The position numbers and the translations under genes are program-made. Below the pieces are notes generated by a model. That model made no database searches, was not told the DNA's origin, and saw only the letters and a list, made by a program, of their open reading frames with translations. From Lingula anatina (taxonomy: Eukaryota > Animalia > Brachiopoda), in assembly GCA_051362555.1 (NCBI GenBank), contig CM120649.1, positions 3,906,001 to 3,970,000 on the forward strand: a stretch of 64,000 bases of DNA. Direction: 5' to 3'. This document shows, in pieces, positions 6,889 through 51,521 of the stretch. How positions within the stretch are numbered: the stretch's first letter is position 1; every line of letters starts with the position of its first letter.

Positions 6889-7188
6889 GATCGCATTCAC
6901 AACGAGTTGAGCCAGGCTTTACAAATCCTGGGACTAAATATGGCGGACGTACATGAAAGAAAAACCGCCTAATCTTTTAATAGGCTCCCCGCCTCTCACA
7001 CGCCTCCCCATGTGTCGTCCCAATGGAGCCGAGATTTAATGACTGTTCCCCCGCAGGGACGACGCGTGGAGAGGCGTGTGAGAGGCGGAAAGACTATTAA
7101 AAGATTAGGCGGTTTTTCTTTCATGTACGTCCGCCATATTTAGTCCCAGGATTTGTAAAGCCTGGCTCAACTCGATGTGAATGCGGTC
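6889..7188. mobile_element. Palindromic MITE (PIF/Harbinger-like)
   Basis: Near-perfect ~130-bp inverted arms (GATCGCATTCACAACGAGTTGAGCCAGG... / ...CCTGGCTCAACTCGATGTGAATGCGGTC). Its core resembles 55590-55869. Confidence 0.8.
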
Positions 7189-7999: not shown

Positions 8000-8720
8000 A
8001 CATCCACGGTTCATCTTTTTTTCCAAAAAAAAAAAAAAAAAAAAAAAAAAACATTGAATGCGTCACTTAATGACAGGACAAGGAACAACAGCACGTGTAG
8101 CTTGATTCTTAACTTATCAAGTTACGCATCCACGGTTCATCTTTTCTCCAAATTTCATTGAATGCGTGTTGTATTGACAGGACAAGAAACAACAGCACGT
8201 GTAGTTTGACTCTTAACTGATAACGTTACACATCCACGGTTCATCTTTTCTCCAAAATATTATTGAATGCGTGACTCAGTGACAGGACAAGAAACAACAA
8301 CACATGTAGTTTGATTCTTAACTGATAACGTTACACATCCACGCTTCATCTTTTCTAAAAAAAAATCATTGAATGCGTGACTCAGTGACAGGACAAGAAA
8401 CAACAGCACGTGTAGCTTAGTTCTTTACTGATAACGTTACACATCCACGATTCATCTTTTCTCCAAAAAAAATCATTGAATGCGTGACTCAGTGACAGGA
8501 CAAGAAACAACAACACATGTTGCTTGATTCTTAACTGATAACGTTACACGTCCACGGTTCATCTTTTCTCCAAAAAAAAAAATACATTGAATGCGTGACT
8601 CAGTGACAGGACAAGAAACAACAGCACGTGTAGTTTTTCTTAACTGATAACGTTACACATCCACGATTCATCTTTTCTCTATGAATTCATTGAATGCGTG
8701 ACTTAATGACAGGACATGAC
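8000..8720 (+). repeat. Tandem array of ~7 copies of a ~105-bp unit
   Basis: Unit ACATCCACGGTTCATCTTTTCTCCAAAA..CATTGAATGCGTGACTCAGTGACAGGACAAGAAACAACAGCACGTGTAG..TTAACTGATAACGTTAC starts at ~8000, 8127, 8230, 8335, 8441, 8547 and 8657. Confidence 0.95.
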
Positions 8721-10200
8721 ACGATCACAGGTGTTACGTGAGGGTTATTAAATAAAACGACCGTCTGTATTTTGATGGAGTTAGTTTATTTTTTCGCAAC
8801 TTGGTTTGATTTAATCTGATATATCAATTGTCGGCCTTACTGACATAAAAACACCGTTTCCTGTAAAAAAGACAAAATGACAACGACTGTCGTTTCTTTT
8901 GTCCATCTAATAATTTTAAGAAAAGCAATTTAACATTATATCATCTAAAGGTCATGACGTCATTGTTGGTGATAGGTAGTTAAAATTCCAGCAGTCATCT
9001 TTGCCATGTAAAATGCTGTGTAGGAATTAAAGAAGACCCTCTCTCTTAAACTTTTTGTTATATATTAGAACTAATTTTCATAGTTGTTGTGATCACATCT
9101 TTCAACTTCAATGTAATAAGATGTGGGAGTTCCAGCTTTGAAAAGAAAAAAAAAGCCTCATCGCCAGTTTTAAGGGCAGTCCATCCTTTGGAATATTGAT
9201 GAATATGCAGGATTGTTTATTGCAGTCTATGATGTACTTATACATTTCCAAGTCAACAAGAGTGACAATACGACTTGTACATTTTGTCCTGGTCCTGGTC
9301 TCACAAAAAAAAAATGAATAAATAAATAAAGACGGGTTCCCTGTCTTAATTACCAACGTTACATGGTCACATGCGCACATTTTACCCAATCAGGAACAGT
9401 TTATTAGTTTAATCAGCACACGGTAGAGAATTGTTGGTCAACGGCTCTCACCAAACGCCATGTGCCTGCGTTGACATTGTGTTTGTGTTCATAGTGTATT
9501 ATTTGTTCAGACAACACCAACAAAAGCCCTACGCGGGGTCAGAAGAAATGTATATTACTAACGTCGGTGATAAATTGTTTGCATTAAACGCGTACTTAAT
9601 GAATTCCCACTATTGCTCTTAATCCTCACCTCACCTTTTTCAACTGATTTATTTTGATAAAAAAAACCCGTACTTCTATCCATTAGTGCTGCAAGGGCAG
9701 TTAGTGCAATGCACGCCTTCAAACACTGCCCGAGCGGTTTAATCTATTCTGCTTGCGAGGAAAGATTTATATTATTCTATTGAACACAGGGGCTATTGGT
9801 CTATTCATTGTATAAGGGTCTCGCTAAGTAAGTCTTTTTTCTGCCGCAATTTTTTGTAAATAGTGCAAGAGGTGTATAAATAAACAGTCACTATGCCGCT
9901 AGGAGCGATGTGTGAGAACGGGTGCCAAGTCTTTTCCTCCCTTAGTAAGTCTTTTGCCTGATTTATTTTCGTAAATTCTTGCCATTTGGACGAGGCATAC
10001 ACCCGACATTCTCCAGCCATTATGGATTATTACAAAAAAAGGCTCAACTGACCAGTTTAATACATACGGACAACATGATTGCTTGTTGGAAATACAACAC
10101 CACGATCTTTGAATTGAAAATGTTCTGGACAGTTCGTAAATGGTAAGTTAAATATACTGGAAATTTATCGTGCAAAAGAAAAAAAACAACTACAGATTTG

Positions 10201-25400: not shown

Positions 25401-25840
25401 AGGTTAAATTTCCAACCAGTAATTTAAAGAAAGGAGCAGTCTAAAGCTCTTTTATGGCTGATCGAGTGATCTATTCAGTTTATCCCTTGGCATGTTGAAT
25501 TTATTTGAGTCGTATAAGAAACTAGTAGAAGTGGTTTACATGTCTTACTGGGAATCCACGCTCCACCGATGCTCGGATCGTATCTACCTTTAATGAAAAT
25601 CGATAGGAATAAACATCAGCTTTACCAGCTGTCTCAGGGAGCGCTTGGTTACAGAAAGGAATTGCAAAATGACTACAGAAGTTTTTTACACTACGCTAAA
25701 ATGTTGGGAAAACGACCTAATTTTTAAATTTTTTTTCAGCAACAGTCCCAATCGGTATACCTGGATTGACAATCAATAAACCTCTAAATCACCTCACAGT
25801 CCGCAAGCTCAAGGGATTGTTTTATAGAGGAGACTGCAGC

Positions 25841-27112
25841 ATGAGAGCCAACTTGAATTTTTGGATCTTCGTGCTTATGGCTGTGATTTTTTGGGTGTCA
25901 CTTCTCTATTTGATGACAAGAAGTTGCATTAAAGCCAACACGTCCCGCCCTCCAGCACTATCTCCTAGTTTGTGTCACAGATGGGTAAAGAATTCTCCAT
26001 CCAGTGCTGTGTCACCGATTGATACATTGAACACAAGTATCCAAAAACCCGTCACTAGTGTGGTATTCTTGAAGACACACAAAACGGCAGGAACGACTGT
26101 GCAAAACATCTTGGTGCGTTTTGGCTACGCTCGGAATTTGATTTTCGCCCTCGGAGCTGGAAAGAACTTGTATCGCATTGGACAGTTTCCTGCTAAATTC
26201 AAACCGTCCTTTGTTCTGCGCAGTGTGACTGGAAAATATGATATATTATGTCACCACACCCGCTTTAGTGACGAGATAAAGAAAGTTATGCCCGCTGATA
26301 CGTTTTATTTTACCATACTCCGAAATCCTGTCAGCAGTTTTGAGTCCTTTTTCACCTTTTTCAACATAGGTGAGACCCTAGGATTAAACTTGACCAATGG
26401 AATTATTGAGTTTTTAGACAGACCTGCACAATTATTCAAGCTTCCTATTCAACACATAGCGACTACTTTAAAAAATTCATTTCTTACGGATTTAGGATTA
26501 GAGAACACTATGTATGACAACTCAAGTGCAATATACGAAAAAATATTGGAAGTGGAAGAAAAGTTTGACTTTGTGATGATAACAGAATATTTTGATGAAT
26601 CTTTGGTTCTGTTGAGGCATCTTCTTAACTGGTCTCTTGATGATGTAGTTTATATCAAACTGAATAAGCGCCCAAAGAGGAAAATTGTACCAGTCACTAC
26701 AGAAGATACTGCGAAGATCAAAATATGGAATGCTGGTGATCAACGTCTTTATGACCATTTTAACCGAACATTTTGGAGAAAAGTTCAGCAATTTGGGTTT
26801 GAGAGGCTTAATAAAGAAGTTCAAGAATTGAAAAGGCTCAATGAATACTGGAAGGACCTGTGCTTTGACCGAAAATCGTTTTTACAAATGAAACGGCGAA
26901 TACCAGGAAACCCAACGACATATCGGGAAGTGGTTATTCCAAAACTTAGCAAAATTGGCTCCACAATAGAAAAATGCGTTTTGATGTCTTTATTTGGTCA
27001 AAATCTCACAGACAGACTGTACGCACATATGAGGGAATATGGACAACTTTTAGACGAACGGCCTCCAAAGATGTTCATCCAACAAACAATATATGAAACA
27101 CGCATTTACTAG
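25841..27112 (+). CDS. Galactose-3-O-sulfotransferase family protein (423 aa, single coding exon)
   Basis: Type II N-terminal TM; VFLKTHKTAGTTVQNILVRFG (5'-PSB); YFTILRNPVSSFESFF (3'-PB); FDFVMITEYFDESLVLLRHLLNW; WNAGDQRLYDHFNRTFW. Likely start is the ATG at 25841. Confidence 0.93.
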   Translation: MRANLNFWIFVLMAVIFWVSLLYLMTRSCIKANTSRPPALSPSLCHRWVKNSPSSAVSPIDTLNTSIQKPVTSVVFLKTHKTAGTTVQNILVRFGYARNLIFALGAGKNLYRIGQFPAKFKPSFVLRSVTGKYDILCHHTRFSDEIKKVMPADTFYFTILRNPVSSFESFFTFFNIGETLGLNLTNGIIEFLDRPAQLFKLPIQHIATTLKNSFLTDLGLENTMYDNSSAIYEKILEVEEKFDFVMITEYFDESLVLLRHLLNWSLDDVVYIKLNKRPKRKIVPVTTEDTAKIKIWNAGDQRLYDHFNRTFWRKVQQFGFERLNKEVQELKRLNEYWKDLCFDRKSFLQMKRRIPGNPTTYREVVIPKLSKIGSTIEKCVLMSLFGQNLTDRLYAHMREYGQLLDERPPKMFIQQTIYETRIY

Positions 27113-27851: not shown

Positions 27852-27942
27852 CAGGTGAATTCATATTATGGAATCAGCATGGAGGATTTACAACATATAA
27901 ACGTTTTACGGGATGAAGAAAACGAAGCACCACGCCACTGAT

Positions 27943-28413
27943 ATGGCCAACCGTTTCATATTACTCACATTCTTGTTACCGTGTTATTTTTGGTAATAGT
28001 TTTCATCAGACGCATAAATCAACGGGCAGCACCGTGCAGAATATATTGATACGGTTCGGCTACAAGAGAGATTTGGTCTTCGTTTTGGGAGCCAAGAAGA
28101 TTTTGTATAAAGTGGGTGAATTCCCAGCCATGTTCAGCTCGGCAAACGTTTTACGCAGCACATCTGGGAGATACAACATATTATGTCACCACACGCGGTT
28201 TAACCAAGATATAAAGAGGCTCATGCCTGCAAACTCTGTTTATTTTACTATTCTTCGGGATCCAGTCAGCACATTTATGTCATATTTTTCTTTTTTCGAT
28301 AAAGCGGCAACCCTTGGGTTAAATGATACCTAGACGAATTTTTAAAGGACCCCAGTTACTGTAACCAATTTATAAATGTTACTACTGAAATACGAAATTC
28401 ATTTTTGGTGGAT
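27943..28413 (+). pseudogene. Truncated Gal3ST-family pseudogene
   Basis: TM remnant, deleted stem, frameshifted THK/TGSTVQNILIRFGY, ILCHHTRF, YFTILRDP, a stop, then IRNSFLVD. The 3' half is missing. Confidence 0.85.
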
Positions 28414-29570: not shown

Positions 29571-30941
29571 TCAACTATGTCCAGTCGAAGATATAGTGTC
29601 TGGTAACACTGTCACTTCACCAATGCGTGCAACGCCAAGGCGGTCACAAAAGAAATTTGCTTCGGATTGGACGTCTTTTGTCCAATCAATAAGGTGGCCC
29701 CGCCCCGTTCTCTCAAGCGTATCGCTGGTAACGTACTTTCCTTTTTGAGAGTCATGCTGCATGACCCTGCAAGCTTCTGTAGCATATTCCACTGGTAGGT
29801 TACAGTATTGCAGTAATTGCTCACAGGCGAAGTGTGGATTCCTTATAAGATCTTCATACTTAAATGATTTAATGCCCACACCATTCTGGTGGAATCGACA
29901 GTAATTAGCACACATGGTCGCCCAAACCGCAACATAACATCCTATAATTGAAACCCGTTGTATAAGATTGACGTTCCCCAGCCATGAATACGTTTCCGTG
30001 TCGACCTCCAGGTCCCATTTGAATCGGGCCTGGCGCGGAAAAAGGTAGTGAGCAATGCGACTTGTCTGAAAAGCGTGTGAACGTTTGTTATGAGGCAGGG
30101 AAGCGAATGCGTGGTAGTACGACTGAACTGTTTCTTTGCCGTTTCGATATAAAAACAGGTGTTTCATTTGTGGGACCACGCTTGCCACAATGTCCGTAAA
30201 AATGAAATTCTCAGCTCTTGCTTTGAGGCACATTATTCGAGGGTTGCTATCCTGCGGTTTGAATGTAAGTCGAACCACGCTCCGCACGTGCTTTTCAAAT
30301 CCTTTGCGGGAGGTCCGTTTCCTAACGATATTCAAACTCGCATACCCACCTGGCTCGCTCATCGACACAACTCTCGGGAGAGATTCGAGAATTTGCGCTA
30401 CTAACGTCGACCCGCATCGCCCTGTGTTCGAGAGAAGCAATATATCAGTTTTCGGGTCGCCGATCTCGTCCGCCATTCTATGGAATGCTAAAATTGGCAA
30501 GACAATTAAGCGAACAGCGTGATCAAACTGTGCCATATACATGAAAGGACAAAGGTCAGGGCTGTAGATATCCACTGCCTTCGGCGTTTCAACGAACAAA
30601 GCCTCTTTCTCGTCGACGTAAATGAGCGTGACGCTGTCCTTCAATATACAGCGCGGATGTGCAAAATGACTGTGAATGGCCATGAATTTATCGTGCTCTG
30701 CTTCTCGTATGGGGTTTAATTTGCATTTCCAGATGACGTTTTTCACTTGAGCTGATTGTTCAAAGAGCTGACCCTTCCGATCGCGACTCAGCGTTTTAGC
30801 GGTACCGTTGCATTGCCACCAGACGCGCTGAGCAAACTCAAAGAAGAACCGACATGTGCAGAAAATCCACCAACGAAGCAAAGTCACATTTATAACCTAA
30901 AAGCATTGAAAGCATTTGAGATATACAAGTGCCTGTAACAT
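29571..30941 (-). CDS. P-loop sulfotransferase-superfamily protein; 5' end uncertain (in-frame TAG at 30897-30899)
   Basis: LLSNTGRCGSTLVAQILE (PAPS 5'-PSB loop), SMSEP, LFLYRNGKETVQSY (3'-PB) and KYEDLIRNP. The frame is open for about 440 codons. Confidence 0.8.
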
Positions 30942-32166
30942 GCCAAATTGTCTTGTTACAAACTTAAAAGTTAAAAAAATTCACAACACCCTACCGTCAA
31001 TAGCATTTGAGCACAGGGTCGAAGATCAATCGGCTGTATTTTAGACATAAAATAGAGTAAAATACACACACTATATATATATTCACTCACTTATACTTAT
31101 ATATACATACCTAGGGATGTTATGTGACCTTGGCGATATGATGATCACTGAAGCCTGTCCATTTAGACAAGCTTCAGTGAAGATCGAGGGCAACCTCGAG
31201 CCGCTACCCAAAAATATCTCGCTTCACTCGACATTTCTCGCTTCACTCGACATAGCGTACTCTCTCGGAAAACTCGGATTTAACCTCGATGTAGTCTAGA
31301 ATTTCACGACTACATCTTGGTTGAATCAGTCGCGGTCTCTTAAATGCTAGAAGTCAAAGACAGATTGATCATGAGACCTTCTTGGCATCAAGAGAATAGT
31401 GACGTTGCTTGCGTTATATATCTACCAGTAGACAAATTTAAAATCTCTTTCACTCTTTAAAAATTTGCATAAACATTTCACGTTTAACAATTATTATTTA
31501 TAATTTCATTACACTAATTCATATCATATGGATATGGTTTGAAAACGGGAATTAGTTTACATTTAAGCCACACGTGCGTACAAATTATTTGTAAATCTAT
31601 AATTTTTTAACGAGGGCTGTGTTATTTACCTTTTGTTTTTGAGCTGTTCATTCTTCCTCTTTATCAGATATATCGGTAAAAATCAAATATTTTCCCCCTT
31701 TGAACTTGTAATTACATGTAGCATGCTCCATGCTCTGAAACCAGCACATGTATATTCTGAAATCGCCTCGTAGTAAAAAATGTCACCAAAACGTAGAATT
31801 ATTACTCCTGTGGCCTTGTAATACACATCCGTTTGATTTTGACTATATTCCGAAACTGCCTCGTTGTCAGAAATATCACCAAAAAGTAAATTTCTTTCTC
31901 CTTTGCACTTGTGAAAAATTAGTTTGACTATATTCAGGTCCAACGCTCCTTGTTTATCAGAAATGTCACTTAAAAGTAGAGGTTTTGCCTTGAGACCTTT
32001 TTCTGCAGCAGGTCCAGCTAAGTGTGGCTCAGCTGAGACGCGTATGGTCAGTGTCGACGATTGATTAAATACTTTTCACGCCAGTTGAACGTCCATGACA
32101 AGTATTTAGCAAAAATTGACCAAATTGGTCAGACATTACGTAAGAATTTGGTGGGAGGTATATATA

Positions 32167-32478
32167 TGTAGTGCCAAGGGCAGGTAGAACCGGCCGGGTA
32201 GCTCATTAGGTAAGAGCACTCGCCCTGTAAGCGAGGGGTCCCGGGTTCGATTCCTGGCCTGCTCACCCCAAATCGCTACAATGGTGGCAGCGGTGTTGCG
32301 AGATAGGGCTCGCGTCTTTCGACATTTGGGGGGGGGGGGGGAGGAGTGTAGTGCCAGGGGCAGGTAGAACCGGCCGGGTAGCTCAGTAGGTAAGAGCACT
32401 CGCGCTGTAAGCGAGGGGTCCCGGGTTCGATTCCTGGTCTGATCGGTGATTTTTCTGCACTCACCCCAAATCGCTACA
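32167..32478 (+). mobile_element. TRIM (miniature LTR retrotransposon) with tRNA-derived LTRs, Helenus-type
   Basis: LTR1 32167-32280 and LTR2 32347-32478 are both TG..CA. PBS TGGTGGCAGCGGTG at 32282-32295 (tRNA-Leu complement). PPT (G-run + AGGAG) at 32328-32346. TATA flanks. A box TAGCTCAGTAGG and B box GGTTCGATTCC lie inside the LTRs. Confidence 0.92.
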
Positions 32479-33671
32479 TATATATATATGCAGCTCTGGC
32501 AGATTTACAAGTAGTCTAAATCGAAGTGAGAAAATTTTGGCCTACTGTCCGCCATGCATGTAAGTACCACCACTTTTCCTGACAAATTGCACAAGAGATA
32601 TCAAACTTGTTTGTTGCAGTGAGTTCGACCGCTGAAGTTCAAGCCTGCTGCTCTTTAGATTTTACGTCCCTTTCATTTTTACTGGGTCATTCATGATAAT
32701 TTACCTGCTTTGTATAGAATTGTGAGTTAGACGACAATATAATGAATGGGAAGTCAGCTACGCGTGGTACATTAACATAAAAAGGACGTTCTACCCCAGT
32801 TACTTCAACACAAGACAGTCAGTTTTTGTATTATCTGCAAAAAATAGCAAAATTTGCGAACTAATGCCGTTTATTGGGCTGGATCTGACAGACATCATGT
32901 AGCAAAAACATAGAACAACGGGCACATTTTAAAAAGTGCACATGATGCGATGGTCCACGGCGAGAGAGTTTAGACTGTACATTTAACATTTTCTGCTGCA
33001 CTTTACTTGGGTCAGAAAACCAATACATTGACCTCAGACAAGTCACCTTAAAGCATGTGTGCTTGGAACCCCTTTCTCTTCAACGCTAATAAATCAATTA
33101 ACAGTCCTGAGCCTGCTGTGAGGTTGCCTGTGATCTACACCCTGACCATGATCAAGGAGAGAATTTCCTGACAAGGTAGACACAGATATTTCCCTGGCGT
33201 ACGTTCCTACGTACATACGTTACGTGCCGTATTATTATTATTATTATTATTATTGTTGTTGTTGTTGTTGTTGTTGTTGTTTTTAATAATTGTCTTACGG
33301 TGCAACGCTGTATACAGTACGTTCGACGTCGTACAAGTTTGCGCACCCGTATAGGCCTATCTAAGGAGTTTATTTATTTTTTGAGTCCCTGAAGCAGGCA
33401 GAAGGCCAAAAGCTCGGAAATTGGACCAAATACGTTAACGATACTAAATCGCATGTGGATTGTTGTCGTTGAACATTGTTTTCGTTGTTTGTTGTCCGTC
33501 GGCACAAATGTGGGAGTGCGTGAGTGCCTAGGCCTTTAAATTTAGAAGTGTTTTTGCGTCTCACATTTTTCTTTGTTACATTTCCATACGGAGTATGATA
33601 TCCCTCAATACGAACATAAACTATATTCTTAATAACTGTTAGCTAATTACAACAAAACTGTTCAAACAACA

Positions 33672-50213: not shown

Positions 50214-51521
50214 TCATTGTTTCTTCCCATGCCATTTAGGTGGCCGCTTATCCAGAATCTGGCCTCGTTTCAGCATTCTTTCATAGATCAAGTCAGAGAA
50301 CTCGATCTCCTGAAGAGACATCAAACTACAGGTCGTGTGTTTAGATCCCTGTTGACTCAACTTATACGTTACAACTTCCGAATATTTTGGTAAACCTTTA
50401 GCTTTCACATTCGTTTCATTATCATAGCACACGGCTTTCCAGTATTTGTTAATCTTCCGAAGCTCTTCGACTTCCTTTTGGAGTCTTTCGACTCCAAAGA
50501 GTTTGATCTTTCTCCAAAACGTTTGGTTGAAATGGTCGTATAGTAAATAGTCACCGGCGTTCCAACTTTTCATCTTCGCTAAAATTTCTGGATCAAGTTG
50601 TACAATTTTCTGTTTAGGACGGGCATTTAATCTAACATTAACAAGATCAGTGAGAGACCAGTTCAGTAAATGTTTCAAAAGAACCAAGGATTCGTCGAAA
50701 TATTCTGCTATCATAACCAAATCAAAATTCTGTTCTAGTTCCAATATCTTCTCATAGGTGGCGGTGATGTTGTCTGACGTGTCCACGTCCATCCCAAAAT
50801 CTACAAGAAGCGGGTTTCTCAAAGCAGCGTCTACATCTGGAATGGGGAATGTAAAATAATATTTCGGTCTTTCAAGGAATGTTGCCAGCCCGTTGGTTGC
50901 ATTTAGCTTGTATACTTGAGCTATATTATAATAAGAGAAGATGGACTCAAACACGCTAGTGGGATTCCTCAAAATAGTAAAATAGACTGCGCCGTCTTGC
51001 ATAATTTTCTGAATGTCTCGACTGAATCGTGTATGGTGACATAAGATATTGAATTTCCCAGCAGCACTACGTAAAGCATACTTTGGTTTGAAAATTGCGG
51101 GAAAGTTTCCCACCTGGTACATGTTCCGCTCCGCCCCTAGCGCGAAAACGAGGCCCCTCTGGTAACCGAAGCGCATGACGATATTTTGAACTGTGCTGCT
51201 TGCGGTTTTATGCGTCTTTAAGAATACTAAATTTGTCACCGGTAGACCAATATCATTGGAGTTGTTTGAAGAGCTCGGGGAAAAAAGTTTGCTCTCTCCG
51301 TCTCGTATCACTGGTGGCGACTTCAAATTTGATGACGTCAGGGACAATGACGTCAGATTGTTGCACTGACAACTGTGTCTGATCCCGTCAATGGAACCTG
51401 TCGGCATCAATATTTGGATTTTATGTGTGTCTATTGAAAATCTGGTCACAAAATAAACAAGTGGCCAGGAGAAAACCAGAGTCGCAAGTACCAAGGTCCG
51501 TATCATTGAGTGAGAGGCCAT
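50214..51521 (-). CDS. Galactose-3-O-sulfotransferase family protein (435 aa, single coding exon)
   Basis: Type II TM; LVFLKTHKTASSTVQNIVMRFG; YFTILRNPTSVFESIF; FDLVMIAEYFDESLVLLKHLLNW; WNAGDYLLYDHFNQTFW. Acceptor at ~51573 and a probable UTR exon at ~51687-51788. Confidence 0.93.
   Translation of the reverse strand: MASHSMIRTLVLATLVFSWPLVYFVTRFSIDTHKIQILMPTGSIDGIRHSCQCNNLTSLSLTSSNLKSPPVIRDGESKLFSPSSSNNSNDIGLPVTNLVFLKTHKTASSTVQNIVMRFGYQRGLVFALGAERNMYQVGNFPAIFKPKYALRSAAGKFNILCHHTRFSRDIQKIMQDGAVYFTILRNPTSVFESIFSYYNIAQVYKLNATNGLATFLERPKYYFTFPIPDVDAALRNPLLVDFGMDVDTSDNITATYEKILELEQNFDLVMIAEYFDESLVLLKHLLNWSLTDLVNVRLNARPKQKIVQLDPEILAKMKSWNAGDYLLYDHFNQTFWRKIKLFGVERLQKEVEELRKINKYWKAVCYDNETNVKAKGLPKYSEVVTYKLSQQGSKHTTCSLMSLQEIEFSDLIYERMLKRGQILDKRPPKWHGKKQ

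Follow-up and report, generated by a model that had tools for sequence, protein, structure and literature searches.

Organisation of the locus

The window, by which we mean the whole 64 kb stretch of DNA analysed, carries a cluster of galactose-3-O-sulfotransferase paralogues (PF06990) at 25721-27112 (+), 27917-28333 (+) and 50214-51647 (-), one of which is apparently partial. Self-comparison also detected long imperfect, MITE-like palindromes at 6889-7188, 52506-52737, 55590-55869 and 60287-60765, a tandem array with a period of ~105 bp at 8040-8740, and a direct duplication of ~1 kb with 90% identity at 61308-63802. A 441-aa open frame at 29571-30896 (-) looks by motif like another sulfotransferase; what appears to be its 5' side is ~1.3 kb away from the element that is the subject of this report.

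This element spans 32167-32478 on the + strand. It is 312 bp long, which is below 1000 bp, and non-coding, and is bounded by two TG..CA long terminal repeats (LTRs), here called LTR1 (5') and LTR2 (3'). The initial annotation had described LTRs of 114 and 132 bp separated by a 66-bp interior, and self-comparison confirmed this arrangement at the same coordinates. The features are as follows.

32159..32166, unstranded: left (TA)n tract; its final TATA (32163-32166) is the likely 5' target-site duplication
32167..32280, +: 5' LTR, 114 bp, TG..CA; an 18-nt deletion between 32261/32262 takes out the T5 run
32192..32265, +: tRNA-like unit of the 5' LTR, with A box at 32199-32210 and B box at 32244-32254 (Rfam RF00005, ARAGORN)
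32281..32346, +: 66-bp interior, against 59 bp in the family, with a G-run 7 longer and one substitution at 32322
32282..32295, +: primer binding site (PBS), TGGTGGCAGCGGTG, 14 nt, complement of the tRNA-Leu-AAG 3' end
32328..32346, +: polypurine tract of 19 nt that runs up to the 3' LTR
32347..32478, +: 3' LTR, 132 bp, TG..CA
32347-32371, ~32372-32454 and 32455-32478, +: predicted U3, R and U5 of the 3' LTR, the split being drawn from where the tRNA begins and from the T-run
32372..32445, +: tRNA-like unit of the 3' LTR, with A box at 32379-32390 and B box at 32424-32434 (Rfam RF00005)
32450..32454, +: T5 run resembling a Pol III terminator, 4 nt past the tRNA unit of the 3' LTR
32479..32489, unstranded: right (TA)n tract; its initial TATA is the likely 3' target-site duplication

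Between the two LTRs, 4 of the 114 aligned bases are changed (3.5%, K2P 0.036), and LTR1 also has the 18-nt gap. Thirty near-repeated 18-mers were observed in the region 31167-33478 and none in any of 200 mononucleotide shuffles; the LTR repeat is not a product of chance. No further copy of the element was detected within the 64-kb window by self-comparison. The PBS, which occurs once in the window, starts 1 nt past LTR1, and the purine tract that had been noted next to LTR2 does abut it, with 19 purines. The proposed 14-nt match to tRNA-Leu was upheld by tRNA-Leu-AAG of bee and human in Fig S2/S3 of PMC10886601, a comparison made by eye with those two sequences as printed there.

The tRNA-like units and the primer

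Both units scored above the Rfam gathering score of 29 for tRNA, with 54.2 bits for 32192-32265 and 47.5 bits for 32372-32445. Each has the A box, the B box, TGT at the anticodon position and C33 that had been read from the sequence at the outset, the anticodon loops being CCUGUAA in LTR1 and GCUGUAA in LTR2. In each unit 20 of the 21 cloverleaf pairs form, and the A box of LTR1 carries a copy-specific G-to-T change at 32206. The description of the LTRs as almost entirely tRNA-like was too strong, as the unit occupies 74 of the 114 bp of LTR1 (65%) and 74 of the 132 bp of LTR2 (56%).

ARAGORN called two tRNA genes here, with discordant isotypes (Thr vs Tyr). Functional tRNA genes are expected to carry U33. 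The possibility that either unit is a functional tRNA gene was therefore rejected on the C33 found in both and on the inconsistent isotypes; tRNA predictors do score LTRs of this kind as tRNA genes. Priming by the element's own unit was also rejected, since a CCA-tailed unit fits the PBS region at only 6/18 and 4/18 bases; the PBS is complementary to the 3' end of a host-type tRNA-Leu and not to the tRNA-like units of the element. The published Helenus-1_LAn consensus, as printed, is fully pairable as a cloverleaf when inspected by eye, and the units matched none of those panels of Fig S1 in PMC10886601 with which they were compared.

The two tRNA genes called by ARAGORN, and Rfam scores that exceed the gathering threshold in each unit, are what would be seen if two tRNA-SINE heads or tandem-duplicated tRNA genes had come to lie side by side by chance. 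This explanation has a negligible probability, as the TG..CA ends are fixed across loci (see below), the PBS lies 1 nt past LTR1 and the purine tract abuts LTR2, and as C33, the discordant isotypes and the identity to a published TRIM all speak against a SINE or tRNA-gene pair. A tRNA-derived SINE (SINE2), with its single head, tail and target-site duplication (TSD) of variable length, was also considered and rejected; the locus has two LTRs, a PBS, a polypurine tract and fixed ends instead.

Assignment to Helenus-1_LAn

Judged by its sequence, the LTR element is a full-length and lightly mutated copy of Helenus-1_LAn, a published Helenus (TRIMp3) family from Lingula. The initial annotation had proposed a Helenus TRIM whose primer is a different tRNA, tRNA-Leu, which the match to this family bears out, and had added that the family or the host lineage might be unreported. 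The latter suggestion fails, as family, host and architecture are already in print (Kojima 2024, PMC10886601), the first two in Table 1 and in Table S1 row 187. The added value of the find is accordingly small.

The entries for Helenus-1_LAn of Lingula anatina in Data S1 and Table S1 row 187 of PMC10886601 give an LTR of 132 bp, an interior of 59 bp, a total of 323 bp and a TSD of 4. Compared by eye with the consensus in that entry, LTR2 is identical at 130/132 bases (changes at 32404 and 32442) and LTR1 at 111/114 aligned bases (changes at 32177, 32206 and 32258), apart from the 18-nt gap; the interior differs by one base (32322) and 7 extra G. Over its whole length the element has 312 bp against 323 bp in the consensus, with 6 substitutions in 305 aligned bases. 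Copies are treated as full-length in PMC10886601 at >90% identity and >90% length relative to the family consensus; the whole element lies above both limits, and LTR1 alone reaches 86% of the LTR length.

The host is indicated by a neighbouring gene. A single-exon galactose-3-O-sulfotransferase ORF of the window is 93% identical over 435/435 aa to an L. anatina protein, and the window is best assigned to Lingula, as L. anatina or a close congener. It could be argued that a Helenus family has moved horizontally into an unrelated and unreported host, given that this best protein match is 93% and not ~99%, and that the exact sequence is absent from the collection searched. Such a transfer is very improbable. 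The three best of 10 protein matches are all from L. anatina, whereas the named animals outside Lingula reach 37-39%, and the single-copy flank varies by up to 19 in ~500 bases between runs bearing the same species label, so that the 93% protein identity is accounted for either by strong polymorphism or by the window coming from a close congener.

Other copies in public sequencing runs

Contigs and reads from public DNA and RNA runs labelled as the same species were used for comparison. The fixed TG..CA ends predicted for other copies were checked and held, with varied flanks at both 32347 and 32478. At the LTR start (32347), loose ends were formed by four contigs in run X3 (agreement 0.53) and three reads in run X12, and at the LTR end (32478) by ten reads in X12 (agreement 0.56). 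The summed contig depth of the element is far above that of the single-copy flank, a figure which does not amount to a copy number. Reads resembling Helenus-3_LAn formed a separate class in the public runs.

At 32322, 32404 and 32442 both contigs and reads show another base at full depth (8/8, 14/14 and 16/16 in X12), in agreement with the differences from the consensus noted by eye, and the bases seen at these positions are private to the window copy. The 7 additional G of the run at 32328 are absent in X1, X2 and X4 and in 8/8 reads of X12; the long G-run is possibly private to this copy too, or possibly an assembly error. An intact LTR end that includes the 18 nt and is joined to the PBS (32459/32460 to 32262/32263) was found in X3, X12 and X15. 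As the 18 nt are thus kept before the PBS in other copies, their loss is not typical of the family.

Reverse transcription normally yields identical LTRs. The window copy has likely decayed in place after its insertion, through the 18-nt deletion, the A-box change, a few substitutions and the longer G-run, because the deletion affects one LTR only, the A-box change lies in the promoter LTR and the LTRs have diverged by 3.5%.

At the end of the PBS (32295), two to three contigs of X4 share the LTR end and the PBS and then diverge. Some of these may be explained by Helenus-2_LAn, which diverges at this point, and the remainder could come from further families or from longer elements that share this primer site, which would provide a lead to the helper.

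Target site and flanking DNA

The element had been placed in a (TA)n site with a 4-bp TATA duplication. The (TA)n site was recovered and a duplication of 4 bp is compatible with it, but the length cannot be read from this copy, because the insertion sits inside the TA tract and duplications of 2, 4, 6 and 8 bp fit it equally. For the family, Table S1 of PMC10886601 lists a TSD of 4 bp in the Helenus-1_LAn row.

On the left, positions 31700-32159 belong to a separate high-copy repeat with internal subrepeats of ~90 bp, which ends at the TA tract beside LTR1. In other copies this repeat continues into different sequence, as loose ends at 32159 show in each of the four runs. With a high-copy repeat cut short on the left side, it is not certain that the two flanks together represent the original empty site. 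On the right, one X3 contig covers the flank (32478-32960) as far as 32478 and then shows 12 unlike letters where LTR2 would be expected; it is possibly an allele without the element, or merely one with a longer TA tract. One X1 contig links the right flank to 22 bases of the LTR, the bridge cut-off being 31. The single-copy DNA at 32507-33000 is highly polymorphic and shows other letters in ~500 bases at 19 positions in X2, 18 in X3 and 10 in X4, and at 1/429 in X1.

The Lingula family may have a preference for TA tracts. In a tally of the loose ends displayed, beyond which there are 26 more, three contigs cross 8 TA bases and then enter a foreign flank, one carries a long TA tract ahead of the LTR, and seven exit without a matched TA tract.

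RNA reads and proposed life cycle

Searching ~6% of each run, 30 RNA reads from the element were recovered in X12 and 8 in X15, of which 60% and 75%, respectively, enter foreign flanks. X12 and X15 are long-RNA libraries that are ill-suited to short Pol III RNA. Their 38 reads had no start or end in common, none was recognisable as a Pol III transcript, and none fell on the unique right flank of this locus in the same ~6% of each run. The reads are best read as other copies that lie inside longer host transcripts.

With high probability, the element is a copy of Helenus-1_LAn, a family for which the tRNA-like unit of the 5' LTR is the likely Pol III promoter and an autonomous Gypsy element the likely source of the enzymes for copying and insertion. 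Beyond the observed anatomy, family identity, host genus and multiple copies with fixed ends, we infer the steps of transcription and mobilisation. Pol III would start at +1 of the tRNA unit of the 5' LTR, 25 nt into the element. In intact copies it would read past the T5 run of the 5' LTR and end at that of the 3' LTR, giving an RNA of <300 nt. This start and read-through are modelled by analogy with Cassandra as summarised in PMC10886601. The tRNA unit may then act as the terminal repeat R for strand transfer, with host tRNA-Leu-AAG priming at the PBS and the purine tract priming the second strand. An autonomous Gypsy element would provide reverse transcriptase and integrase and insert the copy with a 4-bp duplication, in this case into a TA microsatellite. 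Both the Pol III drive and the Gypsy helper of Helenus are inferences of PMC10886601, which itself calls the Pol III function of Helenus unvalidated. Gypsy-57_CaAu and Gypsy-130_CGi have the same tRNA-Leu-AAG PBS in Fig S2 of that paper. No long retroelement-like ORF was evident by eye among the 37 ORFs of the window.

Alternatively, the template RNA might arise by Pol II read-through of host genes, the tRNA-like unit being the relic of a captured SINE and the only products of Pol III being short, dead-end RNAs terminated at the first T5 run. The RNA reads agree with this, as they cross the LTR ends into varied flanks in the proportions given above, including ten reads past 32478, and so does the position of the terminator-like T5 run ahead of the PBS in intact 5' LTRs; for Cassandra, multi-unit read-through transcripts are among the findings reported in PMC7215508. 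Against it, polyA libraries reveal Pol II read-through for any repeat, and many families retain the A and B boxes, a pairable cloverleaf and the T-run, none of which would be required in a passive relic. Pol II read-through as the source of the template is on balance unlikely, and transcription by Pol III from the 5' LTR is the preferred reading.

A terminator-like run behind the tRNA unit

The T5 run at 32450-32454 is the sole run of at least 4 T on the + strand of the element. It gives the 3' LTR the layout of 25 nt, a 74-nt tRNA unit, 4 nt, T5 and 24 nt, which is like that of a tRNA gene, and it falls within the 18 nt missing from LTR1.

Such runs recur in the entries of Data S1 of PMC10886601 that were inspected by eye. 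A run of at least 4 T follows the B box in 26/26 complete fungal LTRs of part 1 and in 22/25 animal LTRs of part 7, in one of them far downstream, and is absent from the other 3/25 of part 7; these are raw counts over related families and exclude one incomplete entry per part. In the supplement the run is absent from the sturgeon, paddlefish and zebrafish LTRs and from one oyster LTR. The main text of PMC10886601 mentions termination for Cassandra only, and no follow-up paper on TRIMp3 was found in the literature collection searched. Of interest to specialists is how an LTR element driven by Pol III passes a terminator-like T-run that is present in both LTRs.

One answer, which we offer tentatively and hold to be somewhat less likely than not to be right, is that each Helenus LTR is a complete tRNA transcription unit with its own terminator. 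Template RNA would then be made only when Pol III leaks through the terminator of the 5' LTR and stops at that of the 3' LTR. The output of the element would be capped, short tRNA-like RNAs would flood the cell, and the window copy would be a natural mutant without the 5' terminator; the Lingula family may in addition favour (TA)n targets.

Comparison with known elements

The closest known relative is Helenus-1_LAn itself. The window element shares with its published entry the PBS, the LTR sequence, the interior except for one base, and the host genus, and its target site is compatible with the 4-bp TSD. It differs in lacking 18 nt of the 5' LTR, the T5 run included, in a G-run 7 longer and in 6 substitutions. 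Helenus-2_LAn and Helenus-3_LAn, as given in the entries compared, have in common with it the start of the tRNA-Leu PBS, similar LTR ends and purine tract, and a T-run past the tRNA unit, whereas their LTR bodies and interiors have diverged.

More distantly, Cassandra and Ajax, the 5S-derived TRIMp3 described in PMC10886601 and PMC7215508, are likewise miniature non-coding LTR elements with one Pol III-type gene per LTR. Cassandra occurs in plants and is the only one for which Pol III transcription has been validated, and Ajax occurs in nemerteans with 5-bp TSDs (PMC10886601). The gene in the LTR is derived from 5S rRNA in both of these and from tRNA in Helenus (PMC10886601).
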